The notes below the pieces were generated by a model. The model worked only from the letters and a program-made list of their open reading frames with translations, did not search any database and was not told the origin of the DNA. DNA of 64,000 nt from an uncultured bacterium. GTDB lineage: Bacteria > Zixibacteria > MSB-5A5 > CAIYYT01. The DNA lies in the NCBI GenBank assembly GCA_963726455.1, contig CAVSCK010000004.1:1760001-1824000 (forward strand). The letters run 5' to 3'. Made by a program: the position numbers and the translations under genes. Positions 28,047 to 43,897 of this stretch are shown here, piece by piece; position 1 is the stretch's first letter; every line of letters begins with the position of its first letter.

Positions 28047-30341
28047 TTAGTTAACGCGAATTCCGCCGCGCGCATTCTCTCGTGAATACAAGTACGATTT
28101 CAAACCTGCATACACCAAAGGCAGAATGCCTATGGTGATGAAGACCACATCACCCGGCAGTCTCAGCCACTCGATCGTCTTCACGAATTCCTGATCCAGA
28201 AACTCAGGGCTTCGGGCATGCCAGTATCCATTCTTCAGCACATCCAGGAGTTGAACGACCCCACCCGGAAACAGATTGGTTATCACCATAAGCGCCAATC
28301 CGGCATTAAGTCCCCAGAAAGATAAACGAACATATTTCTGGATCGTTGCCCATTGCGCGTCTGTCACGACCTGACGAAACGAAAATACCATCAAGGCAAC
28401 GGCCAGCATTCCGAATACACCCATCATGGCCGCGTGACCGTGATTCGGCGTCAGCATCGTCCCTACTTCAAAGTAGCTCACAATCGGCAGGTTGATCAGG
28501 AAACCGAAGATACCTGCGCCCACGAAGTTCCAGAAGCCGACCGCCATCAGAAAATAGAAAGTCCATTTGTGCGGAACGGATATGACCTGATTGCAGATAT
28601 CACATCGTCCCCGGGTGAGTTTGATGAAATCCCAGGCGTCGAGAGTTAGCAGCGTCAGCGGCACGGTTTCCATTGCCGAGAACATTGCCGCCAACGCAAG
28701 GGTGACCTCGGATTGTCCGGTCCAATACCAGTGATGGCCTGTGCCGACGATTCCACTGCCGAGGTATAGTATCGCGTCCAGATAAACGACTCGAGTTGCT
28801 GTGGTGTGTGTCACGAGTCCTAGTTTGAAGAAGATTACGGCTACCATCGCGGTCACGAAAAGCTCGAAGAAGCCTTCGACCCACAGATGGATGATCCAGA
28901 AACGCCAGGTGTCGACGACCGTGAAATTGGTCGTGCTACTGAAGAACATCGCGGGCAAGTAGAAGATCGGAATGGCGATGGCTGAATACAGAAACAGAGA
29001 GGATATCTCAGAGGTTTCGATGGCAGACCTCGCCGGTTTCAGCGCCCGAAATAGCAGAATCAGCCATAGCACTAGTCCGGCAGCCAAAAGGATTTGCCAT
29101 GCTCTTCCCAGGTCAAGATACTCCCAACCCTGGTGACCAAACCAAAACCACACATTGCCCAGGAGCTGATTAATTCCCAGAATCTCTCCGAGCAGGCTCC
29201 CAGCCACAACGATCACCAAGGCTCCAAAGAGCAGGTGTACTCCCCGCGATTGTCCTCGGGGTTCGGTTCCACCGACTGCGGGCGCCAGCAAAAGCCCTCC
29301 GCCGACGTAAGCCGTAGCGATCCAAAATATCGCCAATTGCAGGTGCCAGGTTCGCAGGATGTTGCTGGGAAATAGACTGGATATGTCGATACCGTAGAAG
29401 CTGCCCGGGTCGGCGCGGTAATGTGCGGTTGCGCCTCCGACTACTGCTTGTGCTAGAAACAGCACGGCTGCAATCAGGAAATACTTAATCGTGGCTCGTT
29501 GACTTGCTGTGGTCACTAGCGGCACCATCTGCGGATGAACGTGAGTGTTGTGGCCTTTCCAGCCAAGGTAGTCGAACTTCCCTACTATGAACAGCACAAG
29601 GCCTGTGGCCCCGAGGAGAGTAATCAGACTTAGTGTGCTCCAAAGATAAGAACCGGTCGTTGGCCGATTCCCCGATTCTGGAGCATAAGGAAAATTGTTA
29701 GTATAGGAGGAATTGAATCCGGGTCGATCGGCAACGGATGCCCAGGCAGCCCACGCGAAGAACGCCGTCAACTGTTTCAAATCGACTGAATCACGAATTG
29801 TCTTTGTCGTCAATCCCCGGTTATTCTGTGGCGTTGAGAAATATCCCGCCCAGTACCCGACCTGCTCGGAGAAAGCCGCCACTTCTGACGGAGTAAGTAC
29901 TAGTATACGACCGGCTGGATCGTAGCGATTTTGCTTCAACAGGCGCTCCGTCTCCCCCTGCGCACTCGATAGCTCCTCATCGATTAGCTCCGACGGGCTC
30001 TTGTTATAGCGCGTCAGGGCGACGTCTGATAACATTCGGATCGTGAGCGCATGGAGATATTGCGCTGAGAAGTCGGGACCCAAATAGGCGCCGTGCCCCC
30101 AAATCGTACCATTCTCCATCAAACCGTATTTCAGGAAGACGCTCTGTCCCGCGGTTACGTCATCTCCGGTCCAGATCAGCTTGCCTTCTGTCGAAATCGC
30201 TTTTTCGGGAATTGGTGGGGCGTTTTCGTAGCTCCGTACCGACACCCAGATTAGAATCGCCAGGCCAATCACGATTGTTACAATCGTGGCCTGTTTCCAC
30301 AATGGGGAAATGCGGTCGTTTACCTTAGCGACTGACTCCAT
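28047..30341 (-). CDS. norB: Quinol-dependent nitric oxide reductase (qNor)
   Basis: WGHGAYLGPDF, RTWHLQ, HLWVEGFFE, GTGHHWYW, NHGHAA, WLRLPGD; many TM segments. Confidence 0.93.
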   Translation of the reverse strand: MESVAKVNDRISPLWKQATIVTIVIGLAILIWVSVRSYENAPPIPEKAISTEGKLIWTGDDVTAGQSVFLKYGLMENGTIWGHGAYLGPDFSAQYLHALTIRMLSDVALTRYNKSPSELIDEELSSAQGETERLLKQNRYDPAGRILVLTPSEVAAFSEQVGYWAGYFSTPQNNRGLTTKTIRDSVDLKQLTAFFAWAAWASVADRPGFNSSYTNNFPYAPESGNRPTTGSYLWSTLSLITLLGATGLVLFIVGKFDYLGWKGHNTHVHPQMVPLVTTASQRATIKYFLIAAVLFLAQAVVGGATAHYRADPGSFYGIDISSLFPSNILRTWHLQLAIFWIATAYVGGGLLLAPAVGGTEPRGQSRGVHLLFGALVIVVAGSLLGEILGINQLLGNVWFWFGHQGWEYLDLGRAWQILLAAGLVLWLILLFRALKPARSAIETSEISSLFLYSAIAIPIFYLPAMFFSSTTNFTVVDTWRFWIIHLWVEGFFELFVTAMVAVIFFKLGLVTHTTATRVVYLDAILYLGSGIVGTGHHWYWTGQSEVTLALAAMFSAMETVPLTLLTLDAWDFIKLTRGRCDICNQVISVPHKWTFYFLMAVGFWNFVGAGIFGFLINLPIVSYFEVGTMLTPNHGHAAMMGVFGMLAVALMVFSFRQVVTDAQWATIQKYVRLSFWGLNAGLALMVITNLFPGGVVQLLDVLKNGYWHARSPEFLDQEFVKTIEWLRLPGDVVFITIGILPLVYAGLKSYLYSRENARGGIRVN

Positions 30342-31783: not shown

Positions 31784-32839
31784 ATGAAGAACAGTAAAGA
31801 TGAGATATCGGTCAAGCTAACGGCACAGGTTTCCTGCGCCGGCTGAGCATCGAAATTGGGGCCAAAGTTTTTGGCCGAAGTACTAAAATCGTTACCGCCG
31901 AACTCGAACTCGAACTTGTTGGTCGGATTTGAGACATCTGATGACGCAGGCGTGTACAGAATTAACGATCGGCAAGCATTGGTGCAGACGGTGGACTTCT
32001 TTCCGCCGATCGTCGATGATCCATATTATTTCGGCCAGATCGCGGCGGCAAACGCCTTGTCCGATATCTACGCCATGGGAGGCAAACCGCTGACGGCATT
32101 GAATATTGTTGCTTTCCCATCAAGCTCAATGCCGGGGGAAATTCTGGCCCGCATACTTAGAGGTGGCGCCGACAAGATCAAGGAGGCCGGTGTTGTCATC
32201 GTCGGCGGCCATTCGATCAAGGATAAAGAGTTGAAGTACGGCGTGGCAGCCACCGGAATTATCGATATCGACAAGATCGTGAGAAACGTCGGCGCGCAGG
32301 CCGGCGACCGCTTGTATCTAACTAAACCATTGGGGACGGGCATAATCACTACTGCCCTAAAACATGATGCCGCAGATCCGGCTGATGTCAGCGCGGCTAC
32401 AGAATCAATGACACGCCTGAACGACAAAGCGTCCGAGCTCATGGTTAAATACTGTGCGCATGCGGCAACGGACATTACCGGTTACGGGATACTCGGCCAC
32501 GCGTACGAGATGGCAAGCGGCTCCCGGGTTACATTCAGTTTGACGTTCGATAAATTGCCCCTGCTTCCCAACGTGCTCCAATACGCAGAGGCGGGGCATC
32601 TTACAGGAGGCGCTTCAGCAAATCGCGAGTATCTGGAAGACAAGACAATGATTTCCAAAGAGCTGTCTGGTCCGCAAGTTGATCTTCTGTTCGATGCTCA
32701 AACCTCGGGTGGCCTGCTGATCGCGTTGCCGAAGGCAAGTGGTGACCTGCTGATGCAGGAGGCCATGTCTCTTGGCTTGTCAGTCTGGGAAATCGGCTAT
32801 GTCGCTCCACAGGGAGCGTTCGCGATTGAAGTCGTTTAG
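31784..32839 (+). CDS. selD: Selenide, water dikinase; selenoprotein with Sec at codon 21 (TGA 31844-31846)
   Basis: MKNSKDEISVKLTAQVSCAG-U-ASKLGP is in frame with DDAGVY, QTVDFF, ANALSDIYAMGG, GGHS, TDITGYG, DAQTSGGLL. The TGA aligns with the catalytic Cys/Sec of G(C/U)xxK. Confidence 0.93.
31847..31876 (+). promoter_or_regulatory. Candidate bacterial SECIS element
   Basis: GGCCAAA-GTT-TTTGGCC hairpin at 31860-31876; apical G is 21 nt downstream of the UGA. Confidence 0.6.
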
Positions 32840-32860: not shown

Positions 32861-34348
32861 TCACTCGCCAAATACCAGGGCTTGAAACTTGTGAATCACG
32901 GCATCCGGGTTCTTGTATGCGTCGCTCGGCAACCCCGCCTTCTCACATGTTTGCTCCAGAAACTGCGTGCGATTCCAGCCATAGTCCGTCGCCACCTGAG
33001 GCAGCAACAGGCCCCGATTGTTTCCGAGAGAAATCATGAGGCCATCGCGACCGACTTGGATGTCATCCAGCGACTCTACCTGCACCAGCGGCGTCAGAAC
33101 CGAAATCTCAAGCTTTAGTTTCGGCACTTCAGAAGCGACGACCGGTACGAAACGAGGGTCCGAGACAGCCGCTTTAACTGCACAATCGGAGACCGTCTTG
33201 TAAAGCGGCTCGACTGCTATCGTGTAGCCGATGCAGCCGCGTAGTTGCCCATTCTCGTTCAGAGTGACAAACGCAGCGCCCGGTGCCTTGAGTCTTTCCG
33301 ACACGTCGAAGTCAGGCACTGTTCCTTTGGCCAAGTAGCTCTCAATCGACCTGCGGGCAATTTCCAGGAGCATCTTCTTGTCGCCCGCCGACAGCGCGGT
33401 CGATTGCTCCTCAGGTGTCTTTTCAATCTGTCCCTGTTTCTCGGGATCAGTCTTCTTCGTAGGAGACGACGACTTGTAGATCGCGGCTGCAACATATCCG
33501 ACCACTGTGGATTTGTCTCCGGTGATGTCACCGGAATCGCCATACCGCAATATCTTCACTTTGTCGGCGCCCATCGCCTTGGCGGCTTTCAGCACGGCAA
33601 GAACGGGGCCACCGCCACACATTTCCACCTGCCCCGTGCTCAGATATTGCTGAAGCTTCGCTATTTTGAATTTGTCCAGGCAGTCCATGCCCAGCGAATC
33701 CATTTTGTAGCCCTCTTTCGCCGGGCGATAATGTTGCCAATCCGAAGATGCGATCATAACTGAATGATTATCCAGCTTCAGGGATGCCAGAGCTTTCGCG
33801 GTGAGATCAATTTCCATTGCGCTCTGCGTTCCCATAACCAGCGGCACAATACGGAAATCCTTCAGTACCGTCTGCAAGAACGGAACCTGCACCTCCAGCG
33901 AATGCTCGCGCTCATGCGGTTGAGATGCAACTGCGAATAGTTCGTTGAATGCGAGAACCTTGTTGCAGAGAGAGTCGTCGCACGCAACGTTTCCCAATGG
34001 CGTTTTCCATATGATGCCCGGTCCATAGACCGATACGCCCTGGTATCGAACGTAATGCGATGGTCCACAGAGAATGACCTTCTTAATGCCGGAATCTTGC
34101 AGGAGCTTGTATGAATATGCGGCCACCGGACCTGAGTACGGATAGCCCGCGTGCGGAACGACCAGCGCGATAAGCCGTCCTTCGATGGCCGGCTCGCTGA
34201 CCTTGCCTAGAAACGACTCGACCGCTCCTCTCAATTCCGCGCTATCTGCCGGATAGAATTGGCCTGCCACCGCCGGCTGCCTTATTGTGGCGCTTTGTGA
34301 AACGGCAACGGCGAATATCAACGTGCAGAGTATCACGAATCTTTTCAT
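32861..34348 (-). CDS. amrB: AmmeMemoRadiSam protein B (Memo) - protein A (AMMECR1) fusion with Sec-type signal peptide
   Basis: MKRFVILCTLIFAVAVSQSA; RQPAVAGQFYP, PHAGY, GPSH, EHSLEVQ, SSD..HY; then AFVTL..LRGCIG, DPRF, EISVLTP, GLLLPQVA. SD GGAGGAG. Confidence 0.92.
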   Translation of the reverse strand: MKRFVILCTLIFAVAVSQSATIRQPAVAGQFYPADSAELRGAVESFLGKVSEPAIEGRLIALVVPHAGYPYSGPVAAYSYKLLQDSGIKKVILCGPSHYVRYQGVSVYGPGIIWKTPLGNVACDDSLCNKVLAFNELFAVASQPHEREHSLEVQVPFLQTVLKDFRIVPLVMGTQSAMEIDLTAKALASLKLDNHSVMIASSDWQHYRPAKEGYKMDSLGMDCLDKFKIAKLQQYLSTGQVEMCGGGPVLAVLKAAKAMGADKVKILRYGDSGDITGDKSTVVGYVAAAIYKSSSPTKKTDPEKQGQIEKTPEEQSTALSAGDKKMLLEIARRSIESYLAKGTVPDFDVSERLKAPGAAFVTLNENGQLRGCIGYTIAVEPLYKTVSDCAVKAAVSDPRFVPVVASEVPKLKLEISVLTPLVQVESLDDIQVGRDGLMISLGNNRGLLLPQVATDYGWNRTQFLEQTCEKAGLPSDAYKNPDAVIHKFQALVFGE

Positions 34349-34432
34349 TGGACTCCTCCGGACTGATTCAGGCCCAAAGTGGTGCGGGCAAAAACCGTAC
34401 CCCTTCCGCCAGTAAGGGTGTATATTCAGTAT

Positions 34433-35353
34433 ATGAGCCGGGTCGTTGTGGTCAAGTACATTGGCGACCAGCGAAATCGCCCTCTTTCTCAATCGGATTA
34501 CGAAATTCTTCTCAATTCCGCCTTCCTGACGCTTTCTGGTAACGGCGATTTGCAGGCCGCCATTCGAAAGTATCTGCCCGACGGTGTAGTTGGTATGAAG
34601 CCGAACTGCCTGGCGCACAAATGGAATGCGACGCCGGTGCCTCTTATCGACGCTCTCTCGAATCTGTTGACATCGACCGGTTTGCGCGACAAAGACATTG
34701 TCGTCTGGGAGCGCAGCAACCGTGAATTATCTGCCTCCGACTACAAACTAAATGCGACCTCGACCGGTCGGCGCTGCTTCGGCACTGATGCCACCATTGC
34801 TGGCTATAGCAGCGATTTCTATTCGTTTGGCGAGGTCAACTCGTTGGTTACGCGCATCTTGACTGAAATCGTCGACGTCAACATCAATCTGCCCGTATTG
34901 AAAGACCACTCCGTCGCGGGTTTGTCGGGCGGCATGAAGAATATGTACGGCGCTATCAACAACCCTAACAAGTACCACGCCGACAACTGCAATCCGTTCT
35001 GTGCCCATGTCAATCTCTTGGAGCCGATTCGTACGAAGAACCGGCTGACCATTATTGATGCCGTGCGCGTCCAGTACAATGGCGGACCCGGCTTTGTGGA
35101 AGACTATATCGCCTACTTCGGCGGAATCGTCGTAAGCGACGACCCGGTTGCCGCCGATCGAGTGGGTCTCGAAATAATCGAGCATTTTCGTGCGGTTAAC
35201 GGCTTGCCGACTCTCGATAGGGTCGAGCGTCCCGTGAAATACCTGGCGACGGCGGAGAAACTCGGCCTGGGGACTGCTGATATGAAGAAGATTGATTTGC
35301 AGGTTCTGTCTGTCGACAAAAGCGGTCGACATAACTCGGAGACACTATTCTAA
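34433..35353 (+). CDS. DUF362 domain protein (putative Fe-S)
   Basis: SRVVVV, MKPN, VWERS, INLPVLKDH, GGMKNMYG, H..NCNP, DPVAAD, LGLG. Confidence 0.85.
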   Translation: MSRVVVVKYIGDQRNRPLSQSDYEILLNSAFLTLSGNGDLQAAIRKYLPDGVVGMKPNCLAHKWNATPVPLIDALSNLLTSTGLRDKDIVVWERSNRELSASDYKLNATSTGRRCFGTDATIAGYSSDFYSFGEVNSLVTRILTEIVDVNINLPVLKDHSVAGLSGGMKNMYGAINNPNKYHADNCNPFCAHVNLLEPIRTKNRLTIIDAVRVQYNGGPGFVEDYIAYFGGIVVSDDPVAADRVGLEIIEHFRAVNGLPTLDRVERPVKYLATAEKLGLGTADMKKIDLQVLSVDKSGRHNSETLF

Positions 35354-36492
35354 TGAGACGGCGCGCTTTCCTTCAATGTGTCGGTTGCGGCGCCGCTGCT
35401 GTTGCAGCGACACAGACAGGTTTATTCCCACCGGTTTTCAATACACTGCAAAATGCTTATGTTTTGGGCGAGCCGAGCGATCTTTCCTCCCAGGAAGCGC
35501 GTTTCTACAAGAAGCTGCCGGGCGGCGGAATCGAATGCGGAATTTGTCCCCGGCATTGTCGCGTCACCGATCTCGAACGCGGATATTGCGGCTCACGTGA
35601 AAACCGAGGCGACATCTATCACACGTTAGTCTATGGCAAACCGTGCTCGCTGAACGTCGATCCGATTGAAAAGAAACCGTTCTTCCACTTCTATCCAGGC
35701 ACTACGGCGTTATCGCTGGCGACCGCCGGCTGCAACGTCAACTGCAAATTCTGCCAGAATTGGGAGATCTCTCAATCGCGCCCCGAGCAGACCCAGAACA
35801 TTGATCTTCCGCCTGCGTCGGCAGTCGAAATGGCTGTTCAACGCAAAATCCCCAACATCGCCTACACCTATTCTGAACCGACAATCTTCTACGAATACAT
35901 GTCGGATATTGCCGCACTTGGACACAAGAACGGCGTCAGATCAGTGATGGTTTCGGGCGGCTATATCGAAGAGGAACCGCTTCTCCAGTTGCTCCCGCAC
36001 CTGGATGCAATCAAGGTTGACCTCAAAGGAATTCGCGAGGAATACTACAAGACGGTCGTCAACGGCGAACTCAAGCCGGTACTTGATCGGCTGATGCAGA
36101 TCAGAAAGTCCGGCGTCTGGCTAGAAATTGTGACACTGATAGTACCGACGCTTAATGATACTGAGGCCGAATTTCGCGACCTGAGTCGCTGGATTGCGAC
36201 GAATCTCGGCGTCGATGTGCCGCTTCACTTCTCGCAGTTCTATCCTCAGTACCTCTTGAGGAACCTGCCGCCGACACCGCCAAAGACTCTGGAGACTGCG
36301 CTGGATATCGCGAAGGCCGAGGGACTGCAATATGTCTACCTTGGCAATCTTCCCGGTCATCCCGCCGAATCAACTTATTGTCCGAAGTGCGGCGCAACCT
36401 TGATCGAGCGCAAGGGTTTCCGCATTTTGCAGTCCAACCTGACCGGCAATCAATGTTCAGCATGCCGGCAAATCATTCCCGGTCGTTTCTAA
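35353..36492 (+). CDS. amrS: AmmeMemoRadiSam radical SAM enzyme with twin-arginine leader
   Basis: MRRRAFLQ leader; CGICPRHC...GYC, DPIEKKP, GCNVNCKFCQNWEISQ (CxxxCxxC), YTYSEP, VDLK, YVYLGN, CPKC...CSAC. Confidence 0.93.
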   Translation: MRRRAFLQCVGCGAAAVAATQTGLFPPVFNTLQNAYVLGEPSDLSSQEARFYKKLPGGGIECGICPRHCRVTDLERGYCGSRENRGDIYHTLVYGKPCSLNVDPIEKKPFFHFYPGTTALSLATAGCNVNCKFCQNWEISQSRPEQTQNIDLPPASAVEMAVQRKIPNIAYTYSEPTIFYEYMSDIAALGHKNGVRSVMVSGGYIEEEPLLQLLPHLDAIKVDLKGIREEYYKTVVNGELKPVLDRLMQIRKSGVWLEIVTLIVPTLNDTEAEFRDLSRWIATNLGVDVPLHFSQFYPQYLLRNLPPTPPKTLETALDIAKAEGLQYVYLGNLPGHPAESTYCPKCGATLIERKGFRILQSNLTGNQCSACRQIIPGRF

Positions 36493-38634
36493 ATGACTCG
36501 CCAGGGGCTTCTACTCGGTTTCTTCTCGACTGCTGCACAAGTGTTATTGTTGCGCGAGCTCGAATCGTCGCTCAACGGCAGTGAACTATTCATCGGCACG
36601 GCTTTGTTTGGCTGGCTGATAGCCGTCGCGGCAGGCGCTTATCTGGGCGGTAAGACAAAAAGAACTGTCACACCAACTATACTGTTCGGCGCCGGAGCTC
36701 TGCTATTGCCTCTGCTGATCATCGTTGCGCGATTATCTCCTCTCTATGTGACACACGTAACCGGAGAAACAATCCCTTTCAGTACAGCGGCTCTGATTTC
36801 GATTCTTGCGACGGTCCCCGCGGGCATCCTGTCGGGCTGGCTGTTCACAACCATAGTGCGCGGACAATCGCCGGAGTCAAACACGATCACAAAGCTCTAT
36901 TGTATCGAAGGAGTCGGCGCCGGAATCGCTGGCGTGCTGATCACGCTGCTGGCGGGAACGTGGTTCTCGACGCTAGCAATAGCGATCATCGTCGCAGTAA
37001 TTACCGTGGCTGCTTTGCTATTTGCGCCGTCGGCAAAAAGAGCAGTGCGATTCTTTGTCGTGATTGGCGCGATACTGATGATCGTTCTCGCCGTCACGAG
37101 TATTCCCATTCTCGACCGCGCTATTGACGGCATCAAGTATTCGTCGTATCGAGTACAACAGACTTTCGATACGCCATACAGTCACGAAGCCATTCTCACG
37201 CGCGACAACAGCACTGTCCTGTTAACCGACAATACGGTTGAGGCGACCAGCCCGGACCTGTTGACGGATGAGAATCTCTTGCTGCCGCCGTTCGCTTATA
37301 GTCCGGGCGCCACGAAAGTTCTCGTCTTCGGACGTACCGAATTCGGCATCGAGCAACTTGCCAGCAGACTCGGCAACGTATCGATCACTTCCGTCGATCC
37401 GCGCCAAATGCGTGGAACAAAAGCGACGAACACTTCTCAGATAGTCCGAGTCACTGACGACCCTTTGGCATTTGTATCGCGGACCGGCAAGCACCAGTCA
37501 TATGACATTATCATTCTGCCGGCGGGCGATCTTGGTAGTTATAGAAACAGTCGCCTGATATCGAAGCACTTTCTCGGCGCTGCCAGGCGTCTGATTGCGC
37601 CCAAGGGAATCATTTTCATCCCGACCCGTTACGACTCCGACCGCTATATCAGCGCTCGCGAGCAAACAATCCTGTCGACGATCTACGCCACTCTAAGGGA
37701 GACATTCCCGAACGTGCAATCCTGGCCGGGAAACATGACTTTGTTCTTCGCGTCTTATGAATTGCCGCTTGATCTGCCGTACGATTCCCTGATTTCGAAT
37801 CTGTCGCGACTTTCGTACATTCCCCAATTCATTGGTGAGAATTATCTCAAGGACAGACTTGATAGTCTCAAGGTAGATCGGTTAGTCTTATCCTTCGGCA
37901 GTTCTTCGCATGCCAACAGTCTCAACGTTCCGCTATTGACTCTTCAGGAGACGCTCTATCGATCAGAACTGAGCAAGTTGGATGCGAAGATATCCGCAGC
38001 TTTATTGGATAGTTCCTGGTGGCTGGCAATACTGCCCATCTTGATTGTGACTCTGTTCTTCGTTACCGTGATTGGTCGCAAGGGACACGCATCTTACGGT
38101 CTGTTCCTCTATTTCTGCGCCGGCGTAGTTTCACTCACATTGGAGATGATTGCGTTCTACGTGTACCAGTCAACTGCGGGTTCTTTGTATTCCGAATTGG
38201 CGATCCTTATCGGAATCTTTATGTTCGGACTATCTGCGGGAACCTACCTGACTCTCAAATCCGAATTTGAACGTGTCGACTTGAGTGCGATCATAATGCT
38301 TCTGACGGCGACTACCGTGTATACTCTCGCCTACAAGACCGTTCCGTCATCGATGCTTCTAATATTCCACATTCTCTTCCTGCTCACAATAGCCCTCGGA
38401 ACCGGGAGTCTGTTCGCTGCGGCAACACGACGATATTACGGTAGACGCCCGGGGCCCAACCAAGGCGCCGGTTACGCGCTCGAACTCACAGGATCATCTC
38501 TCGGCGCTGTCCTGACAACAACCGTCCTTCTGCCCGCGATCGGGCTGCACTGGCTTCTTGTAGGCGTGATTCTGCTGCTAGCTATCGCAGCGGTTGGCTC
38601 GATCTTGACGGCGAGAGGCTCCCAGGCGAATTAG
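36493..38634 (+). CDS. Polytopic membrane protein with central spermidine-synthase/SAM-methyltransferase-like domain (degenerate)
   Basis: QVLLLRE...GSE N-terminal TM block; central DTPY..KVLVFG..YDIII; C-terminal TM block with LEMI..YQ..GSLY. Confidence 0.7.
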   Translation: MTRQGLLLGFFSTAAQVLLLRELESSLNGSELFIGTALFGWLIAVAAGAYLGGKTKRTVTPTILFGAGALLLPLLIIVARLSPLYVTHVTGETIPFSTAALISILATVPAGILSGWLFTTIVRGQSPESNTITKLYCIEGVGAGIAGVLITLLAGTWFSTLAIAIIVAVITVAALLFAPSAKRAVRFFVVIGAILMIVLAVTSIPILDRAIDGIKYSSYRVQQTFDTPYSHEAILTRDNSTVLLTDNTVEATSPDLLTDENLLLPPFAYSPGATKVLVFGRTEFGIEQLASRLGNVSITSVDPRQMRGTKATNTSQIVRVTDDPLAFVSRTGKHQSYDIIILPAGDLGSYRNSRLISKHFLGAARRLIAPKGIIFIPTRYDSDRYISAREQTILSTIYATLRETFPNVQSWPGNMTLFFASYELPLDLPYDSLISNLSRLSYIPQFIGENYLKDRLDSLKVDRLVLSFGSSSHANSLNVPLLTLQETLYRSELSKLDAKISAALLDSSWWLAILPILIVTLFFVTVIGRKGHASYGLFLYFCAGVVSLTLEMIAFYVYQSTAGSLYSELAILIGIFMFGLSAGTYLTLKSEFERVDLSAIIMLLTATTVYTLAYKTVPSSMLLIFHILFLLTIALGTGSLFAAATRRYYGRRPGPNQGAGYALELTGSSLGAVLTTTVLLPAIGLHWLLVGVILLLAIAAVGSILTARGSQAN

Positions 38635-38671
38635 CCTACGTACATCAAGACTTTTGAGAGTAAATCCGTCG

Positions 38672-40360
38672 TCACGAGATTCGGTTAGGTGGGGGAGTTA
38701 ACTTGCGATTCCGTAGCAGCAGTTGATTCCGATTCGACCGCGACTCGCCGACCGAGGTGATGTAGATCGCCGCATCGCCGGTAACCGGGCACGCATACTC
38801 GCAGGCGCCACAACCGGTACAGAGTTCGGGATCGACCGACGGGCGCTTGACTTTCACTTCTTCCTTGCGACGATTGAATGCCGTTTCTTCCGCGAAGTAA
38901 ATCGCTTTCGGCGAAGTTGGGCACCACTCTTCACACACAATGCAGGGCGTAGCCATCGCCCAGGGCAGGCAACGGCCGCGATCAATGAACGCCGTGCCGA
39001 TGCGGTTTGGCGGCACAGTCTCGCTGCCGACCTTGCGGGTAAGTGTCAATTCGGAAATCGCTCCCGTCGGACATACTTGTCCGCAGAGAGTGCAGGTCGG
39101 TTCACAATAGCCAATCCTGGCAATTAATATCGGTGACCACAGTCCTTCAGCCCCGGCTTGCAGCAGAGTCGGATGAAGTGCATTGTTCGGGCAAACCCGC
39201 ATGCATTGACCGCATCGTATACAGCGGGAAATGAACTGGTTCTCCGGAAGCGAACCCGGCGGGCGGATCAAGCGAGGATTGGAATTCACTTCGAAGGCAT
39301 CGCCCGATCGCAGCAGCGGCACAAGTGCAACTCCGCTGGCAAGGGATGCCAGCACCATGCGGCGCGAGGCGTCAACCTTCTGCGTGCTCGCCGGACTGGC
39401 AGCCGTGGCAACTCGCTCTGGGTAGAACTTGAAACTGAGAGATGACGCAGGGCATTCCGCCTGACAGTTGAGACAGAGATGGCACTCCGGCTGCCGCCAG
39501 ACTGATCCCACATCAGGCCCGTCTGCTCCCTGACAATGCAGCAGGCACAGGTTGCAGTGATTGCAGGTTGCTTCGTCTTTCGTAAGTCCGAAGATTGTCC
39601 AGCGTGAAAAGACGCCGAGTAATGCCCCGAGCGGACAAATGCCTCGACACCAGAAACGTGTGATCAGGCGATTCAAGACAAGTACTGCCAGGAAGAAGAC
39701 AGCGATGAGAATGATTCCGTGAAAGTGCGCCTGGCGATACGGCAGCAGGACGGCGGCAAAAGCATCATAGACCGATTGAGCCCCTGACGCGATCGCCGGC
39801 GAACCCAGACCTTTCACTGCACCGAGTATGCCTAGCGCCGCGGTGTGCAGGGTCGGTAATATCGCTGTCCCGAGAGAGCGTGCCAGTAATGCCAGAGGAT
39901 CCAGTAACCCTATTTGCAGACTGCCGAACAAAGCCGCGGCCAGGAACAGGAACAGTAGATAGTATTTGATACGCTGATACTTGCCGTAACGGTTTCTCTT
40001 AAGTCGACGCGCATTGTCGCCGGTACCTTTGACTGCACGCACTTCCGATACCCAGTGATTAAGTGATCCCAGTGGACATACCCAGCCGCAGAAGAAACGC
40101 CCTAGCACAATTGTGGGAATCAGAATGACCAACGACCAGAGCAGCCCCTTATATAGTGTACCGGCGGCAAGCAGTGTGGACAACGCGGCCAACGGATCAA
40201 ATTGAAGCGCAATAGAAACCGGATACGGGAGTTGAATCTCGGTGGCGTTGGCGGGCAAAAAATGAACTTCGAAAGTTGTCTTGAGTATGAGCCAGAAGAA
40301 GACTAGAAAGAATACAACCTGCGAGATACGGCGCAAATTGCGAACTGCCTTAATGGTCAT
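38672..40360 (-). CDS. Membrane polyferredoxin (NapH/MauN-like fused to NapG/MauM-like)
   Basis: FFCGWVCPLG and FWCRGICPLG; about six 4Fe-4S-type motifs; internal SRRMVL helix; RPPG. ATG 40360 overlaps the upstream stop (ATGA). Confidence 0.88.
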   Translation of the reverse strand: MTIKAVRNLRRISQVVFFLVFFWLILKTTFEVHFLPANATEIQLPYPVSIALQFDPLAALSTLLAAGTLYKGLLWSLVILIPTIVLGRFFCGWVCPLGSLNHWVSEVRAVKGTGDNARRLKRNRYGKYQRIKYYLLFLFLAAALFGSLQIGLLDPLALLARSLGTAILPTLHTAALGILGAVKGLGSPAIASGAQSVYDAFAAVLLPYRQAHFHGIILIAVFFLAVLVLNRLITRFWCRGICPLGALLGVFSRWTIFGLTKDEATCNHCNLCLLHCQGADGPDVGSVWRQPECHLCLNCQAECPASSLSFKFYPERVATAASPASTQKVDASRRMVLASLASGVALVPLLRSGDAFEVNSNPRLIRPPGSLPENQFISRCIRCGQCMRVCPNNALHPTLLQAGAEGLWSPILIARIGYCEPTCTLCGQVCPTGAISELTLTRKVGSETVPPNRIGTAFIDRGRCLPWAMATPCIVCEEWCPTSPKAIYFAEETAFNRRKEEVKVKRPSVDPELCTGCGACEYACPVTGDAAIYITSVGESRSNRNQLLLRNRKLTPPPNRIS

Positions 40361-41312
40361 CCGGTAATCTCTTTGAAGCCCGCGGCACGATAGTCGACCT
40401 TTCCCAATCCCAGCTTCTCTGCGAGAACTATATGGGAAACGTCCTCCCCTTTCAAACCGAGAAATTCGAAGCCCGCGAATCGGCTGCAACTTGATCGGTG
40501 GCGCAGATCACTGAATCTTCAATCGCCACGTCGTCGAGTGATCCGCCGGTCGGGCCGCCGCGCAGCAATACCCGGGTGCAATCAACGACTGTCAACGTCG
40601 GTTTGCCGAGTCCCGCCACGTCGACAATTGCCTGGTCAATCTTTTGATGGAATTGGCTTCGCCGGCCGCCCAGAATGCCGTAGAAATTCTTCATGGCGCC
40701 GGTATAGCCGGTCAGCGAATGATGCTTGGCAATCGGCATGTTTATCAGCCGATCGGTCTGCACGAAGTACTTCAGCACCGGCCAGACGTCGACGGCCTGC
40801 CCACCCACTACGGTGCGAAGATAGTCCTCTTCGAGCGGCAGGATGACTTTGGCGCCCGCCTTTTCCGCTTCCGCGCGAATTCCTGAGCGCAGGAAACAAC
40901 GGCGCGGCTCGTTGCACGATACATCCGTGACAATCACCTGCGCTGCACCGGCCGCCAGGCACAGGCGAACCATCTCTCCTACCAATATCGGATTGGTATC
41001 TGCGGCCTGTTCCGGCGTGCGATCCCAGCCGATGTTCGGCTTGATCGTCACCTTGTCCCCCTTGCGAATGAATCTCTTGATTCCGCCGATACCATCCAAT
41101 GAGGAGTGCAGCGCCGCAATCGGGTCTGAATTTTTCGTCAGTATTACCTGCGGCAACTGCTTGTCAGCGGGAACTGTGAAGTCGGACGTTTTTAAAATGA
41201 TAGGTTCGCTGCCGGTGACCTGTCGATTATGAAACAGCATTCCGACGGCAGTCGTAGAAGCGGCAAACGCCAGTGTCTTTCCGGTGGTTTTGAGAAATTC
41301 GCGTCGTTCCAT
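40357..41312 (-). pseudogene. DUF362 protein with twin-arginine leader; single -1 frameshift near 40468 (possibly a sequencing error)
   Basis: MERREFLK, IKPNIGW, INMPIAKHH, MKNFYG, DQVAAD; tail EFLGLKGEDV...LGLGKVDY...ITG* is in another frame. Span 956 nt = 3n-1. Confidence 0.82.
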
Positions 41313-41444
41313 GGTGTGGTATCCTCTCGTATAAATAAAGCTGACAGGGAACGAATTTGCAAGTTCTTAAGGAAGACCGGTACGATTTTACACATAAGTA
41401 TTGGCCAAAGCGCAAGAGGCGACTAGTTTGGCCGGGAGATCGAA

Positions 41445-42356
41445 ATGAATGACCGCGTGACATATCGAACAATCTTGTACCTCGTCAATTTCAGTCTTTC
41501 TTTGATGACGGCCCTGGCATTTCTCCTTACGGAAAACGTGCTGGCTCTCACCATGCCTGACGACAATTTCGCAAGTGGCTGGACAAAACCGGTAAAGCCG
41601 CTGACCTATACGCGGGAAAGTCTCTCGGACTATGTAAATGGTGATGCTGAATTATTCAACGAGCTTGGATTCCGGCAACTGGAAGTTCAGCAATACAAGA
41701 ATGGGAGCTCAGAAATTGATCTGGAATTATACGAACTGAACGATCCCAACGGCGCAATGGGAATCTACTTGCTCAAGTGCGGCAAGGAAACGCCTTCCTC
41801 CGAGATTACTTCCCGGAATTCAGTCAATCGTTCGCAACTGGTCGCCGTCAAGGCAAACTTCTTTATCCAAGTCCTGAACTATACCGACAACGATAACGTC
41901 CAGCCGACCATGATCAAACTTGCGCAACAAGCCTTGTCATTGGTGGCAAACAAATCTGATTCAACCGTTCTGGGCCTGCTACCGAGGCAGCAACTTCAAG
42001 CGGGTTCGGAACACGTCTTTTGCGGCCCTTTATCGTTGCAGGCGGCGTTTCGGTTAGGCAAAGGCGATTTCCTGCAGTTGCAGAACAAGACTTTCGGGGC
42101 GTCTGCCAAATATTCGGAGGGACAAAGTGGAAGCTATTCTTACTGTGTCGTCACGTACTCCGATCCCACCGCTGCTTCCGCGGCGTTCGCACACTTGCAG
42201 AAATCTCTTGATCCGGGAATTCAATTATCCGACAAGACGGCCGGTAATTTCACTTTCAAGGACCGCCTGGCAAAATTCGGGACTGCTATACTAAAAGACA
42301 GCACGATTGAGCTAAAGCTGAATCTTGCGCACAAGCCGGTAAGTTCTTCGAAGTAG
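41445..42356 (+). CDS. Exported protein, DUF6599-like
   Basis: Hydrophobic N-terminus; L.DYVNGDAELF.ELGF, ELYEL....AMGIY pattern. Confidence 0.55.
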   Translation: MNDRVTYRTILYLVNFSLSLMTALAFLLTENVLALTMPDDNFASGWTKPVKPLTYTRESLSDYVNGDAELFNELGFRQLEVQQYKNGSSEIDLELYELNDPNGAMGIYLLKCGKETPSSEITSRNSVNRSQLVAVKANFFIQVLNYTDNDNVQPTMIKLAQQALSLVANKSDSTVLGLLPRQQLQAGSEHVFCGPLSLQAAFRLGKGDFLQLQNKTFGASAKYSEGQSGSYSYCVVTYSDPTAASAAFAHLQKSLDPGIQLSDKTAGNFTFKDRLAKFGTAILKDSTIELKLNLAHKPVSSSK

Positions 42357-42396: not shown

Positions 42397-42855
42397 TTAG
42401 AGAAACTTTATGTCTATACGTTTGGCCTTGGGCAGCATGTTCTTGACATGACCTGCCTGCAGCAGCCCGCATCCCAACGGGAAATTCAAGTGCTTGACCA
42501 ATACATAACCATCGGTCGTTTCGCCGATTTCCTCCGGCGTTGCATCGAGATCGAGCCCCTTGATATATCGCGCCGCCTGCTCACGTCCAAGTTGCAGCGC
42601 ATTACGTTTGATGTTGCCGCCAAACGCCTGCAAGAGATTGGTGGAGGGTTTGACTGTATTGCCAATTCGTGCGATCAATAGGCCGGCCGCATCGGGGTTC
42701 AGCACCGAATCAATCTCCTTCGGACCGAGAATGATGCGTCCATTGGCACTGGCGTAGAACTCGAAATCATCGAACAACGTCGCTGGCAGATCAAACCGCC
42801 GCTCAAGATATTCCAACGTCATGACCTTATATTCTTCAGGGCACCGTTCGATCAC
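42397..42855 (-). CDS. RsmF C-terminal/NIP7-like PUA-type RNA-binding protein
   Basis: YLERRF, KPSTN, YIKGLDL, GYVLV...LGCG...KNMLPK; overlaps the methyltransferase stop. Confidence 0.75.
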   Translation of the reverse strand: MIERCPEEYKVMTLEYLERRFDLPATLFDDFEFYASANGRIILGPKEIDSVLNPDAAGLLIARIGNTVKPSTNLLQAFGGNIKRNALQLGREQAARYIKGLDLDATPEEIGETTDGYVLVKHLNFPLGCGLLQAGHVKNMLPKAKRIDIKFL

Positions 42856-43766
42856 TTTCTGATCCTCGCCAAATAGAAGCCACCGGTGTCATTGTGATGT
42901 GGCAGCACCCTTGCCGTCTTGCGCACTTCGTCATCAAATTTGTAGTCTTGCCAGGACGTGATTCCCGGCATTAGGGCAAAATTCGGAATCTCGACCTGCT
43001 CCATTTTGGCAGGGCGTTCAGTCAACAGATAATTGACGACCGCTTCATTCTCTTCCGGAGCGATCGTGCAGGTGGAATAGACCAAGGTACCCCCTTCGGC
43101 CAGCAGGTCGAAGGCCATGAGGATAAGCTGCTTCTGACGGTAAGCGCTGGGGCCGATACGCTTGGGCGACCAGGCCTGCATCTGTCGCGGATTCTTCCGA
43201 AAAATCCCTTCCGACGTGCAAGGGGCATCCAGCAAAACGACATCAAATTGGGACTGCGGAAACGATCGCATATCGTAGTTTGTCACGACGGCATTGAGTG
43301 CGCCACTTCTCTCCAGGTTGAATTTCAATGGCCGAATACGTTCGTATTCCACGTCGTTGGCAACTATCGTGCCGCGATTGCACATTAGCGCTGCGAGCTG
43401 AGTGGTCTTTGAGCCCGGAGCCGCGCATGCATCCAAGACGCTCTTCGCCAATCGCAACTCCTCTCTGACAAGAAGCGGGGGCAACATGGAGGTCAACTCT
43501 TGTATGTAGATGGCGCCCAGGAAATGCTCGAGAGTCGAGCCGATGGCCGGGTTGTCGGAAACGAACGCATCCTCGTACCACGCTGTCTGTTCAATGCCGA
43601 TGCCGTAATCACGAAAGCGCGGAACGATCTGTTCTGCCGAACCTCTGAGGGTGTTTATGCGAAAGGCCTTCGGTAACGGCGTGACCATGCACTCAAAGAA
43701 TGCCTGGGCATCATCTACCAATGGTTCGTAACGTTCGGCAAATGCTCTGGGGACTTCAGGTTTCAT
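42852..43766 (-). CDS. RsmB/NOP2/RsmF family RNA m5C methyltransferase
   Basis: RINTL, YIQE, LDACAAPGSKTTQ, LLDAPCTSEG, YSTCT, EENE, TGGFY. Confidence 0.92.
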   Translation of the reverse strand: MKPEVPRAFAERYEPLVDDAQAFFECMVTPLPKAFRINTLRGSAEQIVPRFRDYGIGIEQTAWYEDAFVSDNPAIGSTLEHFLGAIYIQELTSMLPPLLVREELRLAKSVLDACAAPGSKTTQLAALMCNRGTIVANDVEYERIRPLKFNLERSGALNAVVTNYDMRSFPQSQFDVVLLDAPCTSEGIFRKNPRQMQAWSPKRIGPSAYRQKQLILMAFDLLAEGGTLVYSTCTIAPEENEAVVNYLLTERPAKMEQVEIPNFALMPGITSWQDYKFDDEVRKTARVLPHHNDTGGFYLARIRK

Positions 43767-43775
43767 CGCGCGCTG

Positions 43776-43804
43776 AGTATAGCCACCATGCCGACCGGTG
43801 TCAA
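43776..43804 (-). promoter_or_regulatory. Near-consensus sigma70 promoter for the m5C methyltransferase (near-leaderless)
   Basis: Minus strand TTGACA-17-TATACT, 9 nt before ATG 43766; no SD. Confidence 0.75.
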
Positions 43805-43868
43805 CCGGCAATGTCCTGCGGCACAAACTCTTTTGCAGGCAACGAGTCTTCATCCGGTCGCTGCCTAC

Positions 43869-43897
43869 TTGACAACCGCGCAATCATGCCATACAAT
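43869..43897 (+). promoter_or_regulatory. Near-consensus sigma70 promoter for trmB
   Basis: TTGACA-17-TACAAT. Confidence 0.7.

Follow-up and report, generated by a model that had tools for sequence, protein, structure and literature searches.

A conserved AmmeMemoRadiSam gene cluster with predicted export signals and a NapH-NapG-type polyferredoxin in an uncultured Zixibacteria bacterium

Introduction

Does the gene cluster at positions 32861-42356 of a 64,000-nucleotide stretch from an uncultured Zixibacteria bacterium (assembly GCA_963726455.1, contig CAVSCK010000004.1, positions 1,760,001 to 1,824,000; the whole stretch is called the window below) encode a radical S-adenosylmethionine (SAM) enzyme system that faces the cell envelope? 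The seven clustered genes encode a Memo-AMMECR1 fusion protein (AmrB-AmrA), an AmmeMemoRadiSam radical SAM enzyme (AmrS), two DUF362 proteins (DUF362a, which is leaderless, and DUF362tat, which has a twin-arginine translocation (Tat) leader), a fused polyferredoxin, a polytopic membrane protein and a DUF6599 protein. Radical SAM enzymes are regarded as strictly cytoplasmic, since they depend on SAM and on electrons of low potential and their clusters must be protected. No function is assigned to the canonical AmmeMemoRadiSam system itself. Memo and AMMECR1 are families linked to human disease. The main comparative study of Memo, by Burroughs et al. 2019 (J Biol Chem), is said to link Memo contexts to nucleotide-base and isoprenoid modification, and may cover part of the present context. 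The literature that we searched, with that study outside the search, describes no exported, secreted, extracytoplasmic or periplasmic radical SAM enzyme and no such cluster, and contains nothing relevant on AmmeMemoRadiSam by name, on radical SAM with twin-arginine leaders, on AMMECR1 with Memo and radical SAM, on flavinylation with radical SAM, AMMECR1 or Memo, or on DUF6599.

A first-pass annotation of the window proposed a periplasm-facing radical SAM pathway with its own membrane electron conduit. Judging from the signals and gene neighborhoods described below, we consider it fairly probable that the cluster represents a conserved, envelope-facing variant of the AmmeMemoRadiSam system that is supplied with electrons, and possibly with SAM, by its own components, and in which the chemistry would take place outside the cytoplasm.

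Results

All seven genes are present and belong to the families named in the first-pass annotation, as confirmed by profile scores. AmrS matches TIGR04337 with 366.8 bits (cut-off 220) and PF04055 with 60.4 bits. The fusion protein, encoded two genes away from AmrS on the opposite strand, combines TIGR04336 (268.8 bits, cut-off 26) and TIGR04335 (179.9 bits, cut-off 99) in one polypeptide. In a 42-sequence alignment of AmrS, the cysteines of the CX3CX2C motif (C127, C131 and C134) and those of two more cysteine groups are invariant, as are R3 and R4 in the leader.

Three leaders are read from the sequence: MKRFVILCTLIFAVAVSQSA, which is Sec-type, on the Memo-AMMECR1 fusion, and the Tat leaders MRRRAFLQCVGCGAAAVAA on AmrS and MERREFLKTTGKTLAFAAS on DUF362tat. 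A positively charged, hydrophobic Sec-type signal precedes the conserved VRQPAVAG-FYP motif, as judged by eye, in all 47 homologues of the fusion whose N-termini lie on the contig. Of the 120 best homologues of AmrS (54-100% identity, nearly all of them 379 residues long), 118 have a twin arginine (RR) close to the N-terminus, together with a c-region that resembles Q-N-A-x-A; the called N-termini of the remaining two are shorter, with the h-region still there. DUF362tat keeps its RR with a conservation of 90% or more across 28 sequences. DUF362a is leaderless in the window and likewise in loci labelled Zixibacteria, Ignavibacteria and Aminicenantes, and its orthologues at the same gene position in Acidobacteriota, Calditrichia and Eisenbacteria have an RRxFLK leader in 25 of 26 inspected open reading frames (ORFs). 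DUF6599 is hydrophobic at residues 9-36, and its homologues in related loci mostly have N-termini with a signal or a lipobox.

The h-region of the AmrS leader contains a C-x-[GS]-C motif (residues 9-12, window positions 35377-35388), which is kept in 101 of the 120 homologues. Two cysteines inside a signal peptide are unusual, and the motif does not match a lipobox.

A strict Tat pattern (RRxF[LIM][KRQ] plus 13 uncharged residues) occurs in 4 of the 3238 frames of at least 200 residues in the genome, and AmrS and DUF362tat are two of these four. A looser pattern was dropped as unspecific (98 of 2787 frames). The genome encodes TatC (212.9 bits) and Omp85-family proteins, indicating that the export machinery and an outer membrane are present. 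The signals assigned in the first-pass annotation, including the absence of a leader on one DUF362 protein and the export of the DUF6599-like protein (PF20244), are thus recovered, and the leaders are conserved across phyla. Apparent Tat signals are found on the parts with actual or probable cofactors, namely AmrS, the DUF362 proteins and the NapG-like half of the polyferredoxin, and apparent Sec or lipoprotein signals on the two proteins for which no cofactor is evident, DUF6599 and the Memo-AMMECR1 fusion. This choice of pathway is logical.

The leaders may be vestigial, may bind chaperones or may tether the proteins to the membrane on its cytoplasmic side, in which case the enzymes would act at the inner membrane face. 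Such a situation agrees with the cytoplasmic nature ascribed to radical SAM enzymes, the remnant Tat motif of NarG is reportedly a precedent for a non-exporting leader, and the C-x-[GS]-C motif of AmrS might be a binding motif rather than part of a plain signal. However, a vestigial Tat motif explains neither the Sec signals on all the fusions nor the signals and lipoboxes on the DUF6599 homologues. The division of cofactor proteins and other proteins between the two pathways, the retention of the AmrS leader with an A-x-A-like c-region at 54-83% protein identity across phyla, and the leaderless Memo, AMMECR1 and AmrS-like paralogues dispersed elsewhere in the same genome all argue for functional leaders. 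We regard non-exporting leaders as very improbable.

If the cluster is a system facing the envelope, the accessory genes are expected near signal-bearing AmrS genes. We compared 80 AmrS loci from metagenome-assembled genomes labelled Zixibacteria, Ignavibacteria, Acidobacteriota, Aminicenantes, Calditrichia and Eisenbacteria, including 38 loci with at least 8 kb on each side. As a control, we took every TIGR04337 match, 70 in total, from 60 further genomes of the phylum to which the window belongs, with 7-kb flanks; 20 of them are leader-bearing (19 by pattern and 1 by eye), 49 are leaderless, and 1 with a masked N-terminus was left out. The counts are listed in Table 1.

Table 1. Neighbors of AmrS genes in the related loci and in the same-phylum control
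Neighbor of AmrS	80 loci	38 loci with long flanks	Control, 20 leader-bearing AmrS	Control, 49 leaderless AmrS	Remark
DUF362a	77	38	17	0	directly upstream of AmrS in the 77 loci
MFS protein	69	36	20	0	
Memo-AMMECR1 fusion	49	25	13	1	
Polyferredoxin	24	13		0	
DUF362tat	23	14		0	
DUF6599	28	16		0	

The co-occurrence of accessory genes with signal-bearing amr genes, anticipated in the first-pass annotation, is observed: the membrane protein (called the MFS protein in Table 1, after the major facilitator superfamily fold described later) is a neighbor of every leader-bearing AmrS gene of the control and of none of the leaderless ones. As related genomes are not independent, we treat this contrast as a pattern and attach no statistical weight to it. 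The complete seven-gene set is found in 12 of the 80 loci. Labels of the metagenome-assembled genomes with the cluster include Acidobacteriaceae, Caldithrix and Ignavibacteria. In Aminicenantes-type genomes the fusion gene is not adjacent, and an unlinked copy, each time with a signal, is found in all five cases. All-against-all clustering of the ORFs in the 80 loci gives no further widely conserved neighbor. Some Acidobacteriota loci (L039, L043 and L068) have a third DUF362 gene, located between the genes for DUF362tat and the polyferredoxin, whose product likewise begins with a Tat leader.

The wider AmrS family was surveyed with the 150 nearest representatives at 50% identity, many of which carry diverse Tat leaders. 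In a tree of the 131 usable rows, from which fragments and multi-stretch hits had been dropped, a single part of 34 rows takes in 26 of the 30 rows labelled Tat, and within that part a subclade of 27 rows has an SH-aLRT support of 95. The Tat label needs 7 changes on this tree, versus a mean of 27 with shuffled labels.

Natural fusions in the family, assigned with Pfam, should also be considered. AmrS is fused to DsbD_2, to DsbD_2, FMN_bind and a NapH-like part, or to FMN_bind and a NapH-like part (P0132, P0141, P0148, P0149 and P0151), and it is preceded by signal-bearing beta-propeller or CBM11 domains in P0122 and P0126. The FMN_bind-AmrS fusions P0167 and P0169 have a single N-terminal helix and no other transmembrane segment, which places AmrS on the same side of the membrane as the FMN_bind domain. 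According to the main text of Meheust et al. 2021 (PMC8238504), flavin mononucleotide (FMN)-binding domains are extracytosolic, and NapH-like and DsbD proteins are classes of transmembrane electron-transfer proteins. Another family member, P0157, has an intein with a LAGLIDADG endonuclease domain within its radical SAM domain.

The accessory genes could instead form a separate envelope redox module, composed of a DUF362-polyferredoxin oxidoreductase beside an unrelated MFS transporter, that does not feed AmrS. The polyferredoxin, DUF362tat and DUF6599 genes lie within the flanks in just 24, 23 and 28 of the 80 loci, the module has its own transcription unit on the opposite strand, and NapH-like modules serve many oxidoreductases, as described in the main text of PMC8238504. 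Against such independence, none of these genes is found beside the 49 leaderless AmrS genes, the MFS protein and DUF362a genes nearly always adjoin AmrS, and in other family members AmrS forms one polypeptide with NapH-like, FMN_bind and DsbD_2 modules. In addition, the genome has just one copy each of the genes for the polyferredoxin, DUF6599 and the membrane protein. A separate module is quite unlikely in our judgment, and we continue with a connected system.

The polyferredoxin consists, in this order, of a NapH-like half, a cytoplasmic two-cluster segment, the segment SRRMVLASLASGVALVPLLRSG and a NapG-like half with four cluster motifs. The NapH-like half contains PF12801 (Fer4_5) and has four helices and two CX3CP motifs, judging from hydropathy, charge and profile matches. 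In SRRMVLASLASGVALVPLLRSG, an internal RR at around residue 333 precedes a weakly hydrophobic fifth transmembrane domain (TMD5). The combination of [RK]R, a weakly hydrophobic stretch and trailing positive residues is found in 31 of 32 homologues, and the exception is a truncated ORF. The scores are below the equivalog cut-offs for both NapG (PRK09476, 108.2 versus 269) and NapH (PRK09477, 64.3 versus 234), indicating that the protein is a relative in architecture and not the Nap subunits themselves.

An excerpt of Tooke et al. 2017 (PMC5449189) describes the MLMS-1 polyferredoxin Q1NSB0 as a NapH-NapG fusion with clusters at both sides of the membrane and TMD5 at residues 338-359; MBP and AmiA placed after TMD5 are translocated in a Tat- and RR-dependent manner, as judged with RR-to-KK variants. 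The same excerpt refers to NapGH as a quinol dehydrogenase. With five TMDs in a NapH-NapG architecture and RR before TMD5, the window polyferredoxin is assigned by its sequence to the same class, in which Tat carries the outer half across the membrane, as demonstrated in that excerpt. A membrane electron conduit belonging to the cluster is thus well supported and is the best-founded part of the earlier interpretation.

The membrane protein, read in the first-pass annotation as a polytopic protein with a SAM-type fold, has no match in Pfam, including its MFS families. Its NCBIfam matches, to polyamine aminopropyltransferase and to the fused MFS/spermidine synthase NF037959 (19.3 versus 40), are weak and below cut-off. 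An AlphaFold2 (AF2) model built from a 40-sequence alignment (pLDDT 92, pTM 0.92) shows 7 + 7 helices around a soluble insert. The helical part resembles MFS transporters, with VMAT2 (9kqa) at Z 24.0 (root mean square deviation 3.7, 328 aligned residues), VAChT, SotB, OCTN2 and others at Z 20-23, and many further MFS chains at Z 16-23. The two lobes of the MFS part have no similarity to each other in BLASTP (E 0.8). The insert (residues around 216-500, between the two central helices) resembles the aminopropyltransferase 1uir (E 1.4e-9, TMt 0.64-0.70; Z 19.6, 268 aligned residues). With the N-terminus inside, Lys and Arg in the short loops average 18.2 on the inside versus 3.1 on the outside, and the inside count is larger in all 40 homologues. 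This bias suggests that the insert, which lies in the loop joining the central helices, faces outward. The earlier description is thereby refined to an MFS fold with a predicted outward-facing aminopropyltransferase-fold insert.

The residues kept in the insert are the acidic residue ending strand 2 (37 of 40 homologues), D323 (36 of 40) and D338 (40 of 40). Aminopropyltransferases have a glycine-rich nucleotide loop and a catalytic Asp after strand 4, and the three kept positions are presumably binding residues. We read the insert as a putative adenosyl-binding module and not as an active spermidine synthase.

DUF362a is predicted to resemble LarA-family racemases in fold, and it has no obvious electron-carrier features. 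In its AF2 model (pLDDT 95.7), the best Foldseek matches are members of that family (7s91, E 4.9e-7, TMq 0.51), and no conserved cysteine cluster is found in its alignment. An H-x9-K-x12/13-H pattern is invariant in both DUF362a and DUF362tat. The cofactor residues of LarA1 are His174, Lys184 and His200, and DUF362 and LarA share a Pfam clan (PMC11770544). The passage of electrons through DUF362, as proposed in the first-pass annotation, is not supported, since DUF362a models as LarA-like and lacks a conserved cysteine cluster; an electron-relay role is still possible for DUF362tat, which has three conserved cysteines (C118 in 28 of 28 sequences, C133 in 26 of 28 and C139 in 25 of 28). Searches of PDB sequences with AmrS and DUF362 give nothing, and all neighbors of DUF6599 in the Atlas are DUF6599 clusters.

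An obligatory nickel-pincer cofactor in the DUF362 proteins was considered because of the fold, the H/K/H pattern and the presence of LarB, LarC and LarE in the genome. It was rejected, as LarC is found in only 12 of the 18 genomes with the DUF362a-AmrS cluster versus 36 of 61 genomes overall, and the genome has a separate LarA-like gene. The LarB and LarC genes are adjacent, and the LarA-like gene is split over two frames (for the LarB-LarC pair, LarE and the LarA-like gene: G000:C4:1410620-1412396, C3:763807-764595 and C3:~544650).

Co-export of the leaderless DUF362a with AmrS is plausible, judging from the overlap of the DUF362a stop codon with the AmrS start codon and from the leaders carried by the orthologues in other phyla. 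The same coupling bears on the strongest rival explanation, in which the radical SAM step is cytoplasmic and precedes export. AmrS, related to glycyl-radical activases, would modify DUF362a, itself or another bound protein, the finished complex would leave by Tat, and the chemistry outside would be left to Memo-AMMECR1, DUF362 and the polyferredoxin. The next-best family scores of AmrS are indeed to PFL- and NrdG-type activases, its gene is translationally coupled to that of DUF362a and adjacent to it in 77 of the 80 loci, and SAM is not known outside the cytoplasm. However, in Acidobacteriota and other phyla, AmrS and DUF362a each have their own Tat leader, so that a maturase need not accompany its target. 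The membrane protein, which is the universal partner, is a transporter whose SAM-type fold is predicted to face outward, and the covalent fusion of AmrS to extracytosolic FMN_bind domains fits reduction outside. Action before export is, in our estimation, unlikely, and we prefer action of AmrS outside the cytoplasm.

The positions of the features are listed in Table 2. Three start codons were corrected relative to the ORF listing by reading the translations. The membrane protein gene begins one base past the AmrS stop codon. This abutment, the overlap of the DUF362a and AmrS genes, and the location of DUF362tat and the polyferredoxin on one strand suggest co-transcription, to which a scan for promoters and terminators adds nothing.

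Table 2. Features of the cluster in the window
Feature	Position	Strand	Basis and remarks
Memo-AMMECR1 fusion (AmrB-AmrA), 495 residues	32861-34348	-	start moved to Met at 34348; Pfam Memo and AMMECR1 match over full length
Sec-type signal peptide of the fusion, about 21 residues	34286-34348	-	hydrophobic N-terminus
DUF362a, 306 residues, leaderless	34433-35353	+	PF04015, 65.7 bits
AmrS, AmmeMemoRadiSam radical SAM enzyme, 379 residues	35353-36492	+	TIGR04337
Tat leader of AmrS, about 36 residues	35353-35460	+	RR motif, conservation
14-helix membrane protein (MFS fold with predicted aminopropyltransferase-fold insert)	36493-38634	+	AF2 model, structure matches
NapH-NapG fused polyferredoxin, 562 residues	38672-40360	-	NapH models on N-terminal half, NapG models on C-terminal half
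Internal RR and weakly hydrophobic TMD5	39293-39364	-	precedes NapG-like half
DUF362tat, 286 residues, Tat leader	40452-41312	-	PF04015, 146.6 bits; upstream of polyferredoxin, same strand
DUF6599 protein, 303 residues, N-terminal signal or anchor	41445-42356	+	PF20244, 69.7 bits

A selD-like gene (31784-32839, +) adjoins the cluster. Its reading frame runs on beyond the 5' end of the ORF as listed, across a TGA codon in frame (31844-31846) within the motif SCAG-U-ASK, so that the product appears to be a selenophosphate synthetase that contains selenocysteine; another selD-like copy is located on contig C3. On the other side, an RsmF-type rRNA methyltransferase is encoded by two overlapping ORFs, 42397-42855 (-) and 42852-43883 (-), for a catalytic part and a PUA part, and locus L005, the closest relative, is split in the same way. 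The distant flanks contain an 862-residue multihaem cytochrome with a membrane C-terminus (45436-48024, +) and a nitric oxide reductase of the quinol type (28047-30341, -), a NorB that has a cytochrome c-like domain; the ORF clustering across the 80 loci shows no conservation of either one next to the cluster in other phyla. Outside the window, a second AmrS-like gene without a leader (G000:C4:157873-158851; L002 1483-2857) is broken over three frames and has a cupin-like C-terminal extension. The gene beside it also appears frame-broken, and the breaks may be assembly indel errors or mark pseudogenes.

Discussion

Electrons would enter the cytoplasmic clusters of the NapH-like half of the polyferredoxin, cross the membrane and exit via the four NapG-like clusters to reduce AmrS, which would then cleave SAM outside the cytoplasm and attack an envelope-bound or exogenous substrate; Memo-AMMECR1 would process this substrate afterwards. 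DUF362a of this genome would leave the cytoplasm bound to AmrS. The least certain step is the role of the MFS protein, which might supply SAM or remove its products, an assignment that we hold to be doubtful. For the large multi-phylum branch of AmrS as a whole, we propose tentatively, as a serious possibility short of a probable one, radical SAM catalysis outside the cytoplasm by a Tat-exported enzyme with its clusters. Low-potential electrons would be wired through the polyferredoxin or, in the relatives, through fused FMN_bind, NapH-like or DsbD parts, SAM would come from the outward insert of the MFS exporter, and the substrate would be an envelope lipid, a polymer or an exogenous compound.

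Several points weigh against this proposal. We know of no SAM available outside the cytoplasm. The potential of quinol is too high to reduce a radical SAM cluster, so the electron source must differ from that of the textbook NapGH case. The signals are judged by motif, hydropathy and conservation; the c-region of AmrS in the window is N-A-Y-V, which departs from the N-A-x-A of the family, and DUF362a in this genome has no leader. In the insert of the MFS protein, the glycine-rich loop is degenerate in the window (GRTEFG) and GGG..G in 16 of 40 homologues, and the catalytic Asp position is N in 24 of 40, D in 7 of 40 and P in 2 of 40. The frequent replacement of this Asp suggests that the insert may bind without catalysis or act outside SAM chemistry. 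The polyferredoxin, DUF362tat and DUF6599 genes are inside the retrieved flanks in only about one-third of the loci, and nearly all loci are from metagenome-assembled genomes, in which related genomes are not independent observations.

Of the periplasm-facing radical SAM pathway in the first-pass annotation, we retain the export signals, the co-occurrence of the genes and the class of the polyferredoxin, and give up the passage of electrons through DUF362; the extracytoplasmic chemistry itself is what we infer. If the proposal is true, radical SAM chemistry extends to the cell envelope of anaerobes, and SAM export, hitherto not known, is implied. The exported and cytoplasmic versions in one genome offer a handle on what Memo, AMMECR1 and the radical SAM enzyme that partners them do. 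The cluster also gives DUF362 and DUF6599 a context, and the NapH-NapG polyferredoxins, so far only a curiosity of Sec/Tat insertion, gain a partner system.

Comparison with known systems

The membrane protein shares the MFS fold and the aminopropyltransferase fold with the MFS transporters and the fused MFS/spermidine synthases (NF037959). Contrarily to the latter, it scores below the cut-off, its soluble domain lies between the central helices and is predicted to face outward, and the catalytic Asp position is mostly not Asp. The likeness of DUF362a to the LarA racemases with their nickel-pincer nucleotide lies in the modelled fold, in an H-x9-K-x12/13-H pattern that resembles the three LarA1 residues and in the common Pfam clan; the TM-scores are only about 0.5, however, the DUF362 proteins here are predicted to be exported, and LarC is not enriched with the cluster.

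In Tat hitchhiker complexes, as outlined in an excerpt of PMC10924467, only one partner carries the signal. The leaderless DUF362a, encoded upstream of and overlapping the Tat-leader AmrS, is alike in its gene arrangement, whereas DUF362a in other phyla bears its own leader.

Q1NSB0 and the window polyferredoxin both have NapH-like and NapG-like halves, RR directly before a weakly hydrophobic fifth TMD and positive residues after it, a likeness in architecture. The excerpt of PMC5449189 names no partner enzyme or function for Q1NSB0, whereas the polyferredoxin here sits with genes for DUF362 and AmmeMemoRadiSam proteins that are predicted to be exported.

Relatives of this AmrS are fused to the same types of modules as are found in the flavinylation-associated systems of PMC8238504, and the window polyferredoxin has PF12801 in common with them, but the window cluster has no FMN_bind domain. 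The words "radical", "Memo" and "DUF362" are absent from the main text of that paper, its supplementary cluster table being outside this check.

The closest known system is the canonical AmmeMemoRadiSam trio (TIGR04335, TIGR04336 and TIGR04337), with which the cluster shares the families above cut-off, the clustering of the genes and the family cysteines. The leaderless AmrS relatives of the same phylum have none of the accessory proteins beside them (0 of 49 for the MFS protein, DUF362a, the polyferredoxin, DUF362tat and DUF6599), and the fusion is beside one of the 49. By contrast, in the cluster described here the soluble parts carry predicted export signals, with DUF362a leaderless in this genome, and four accessory genes are attached.

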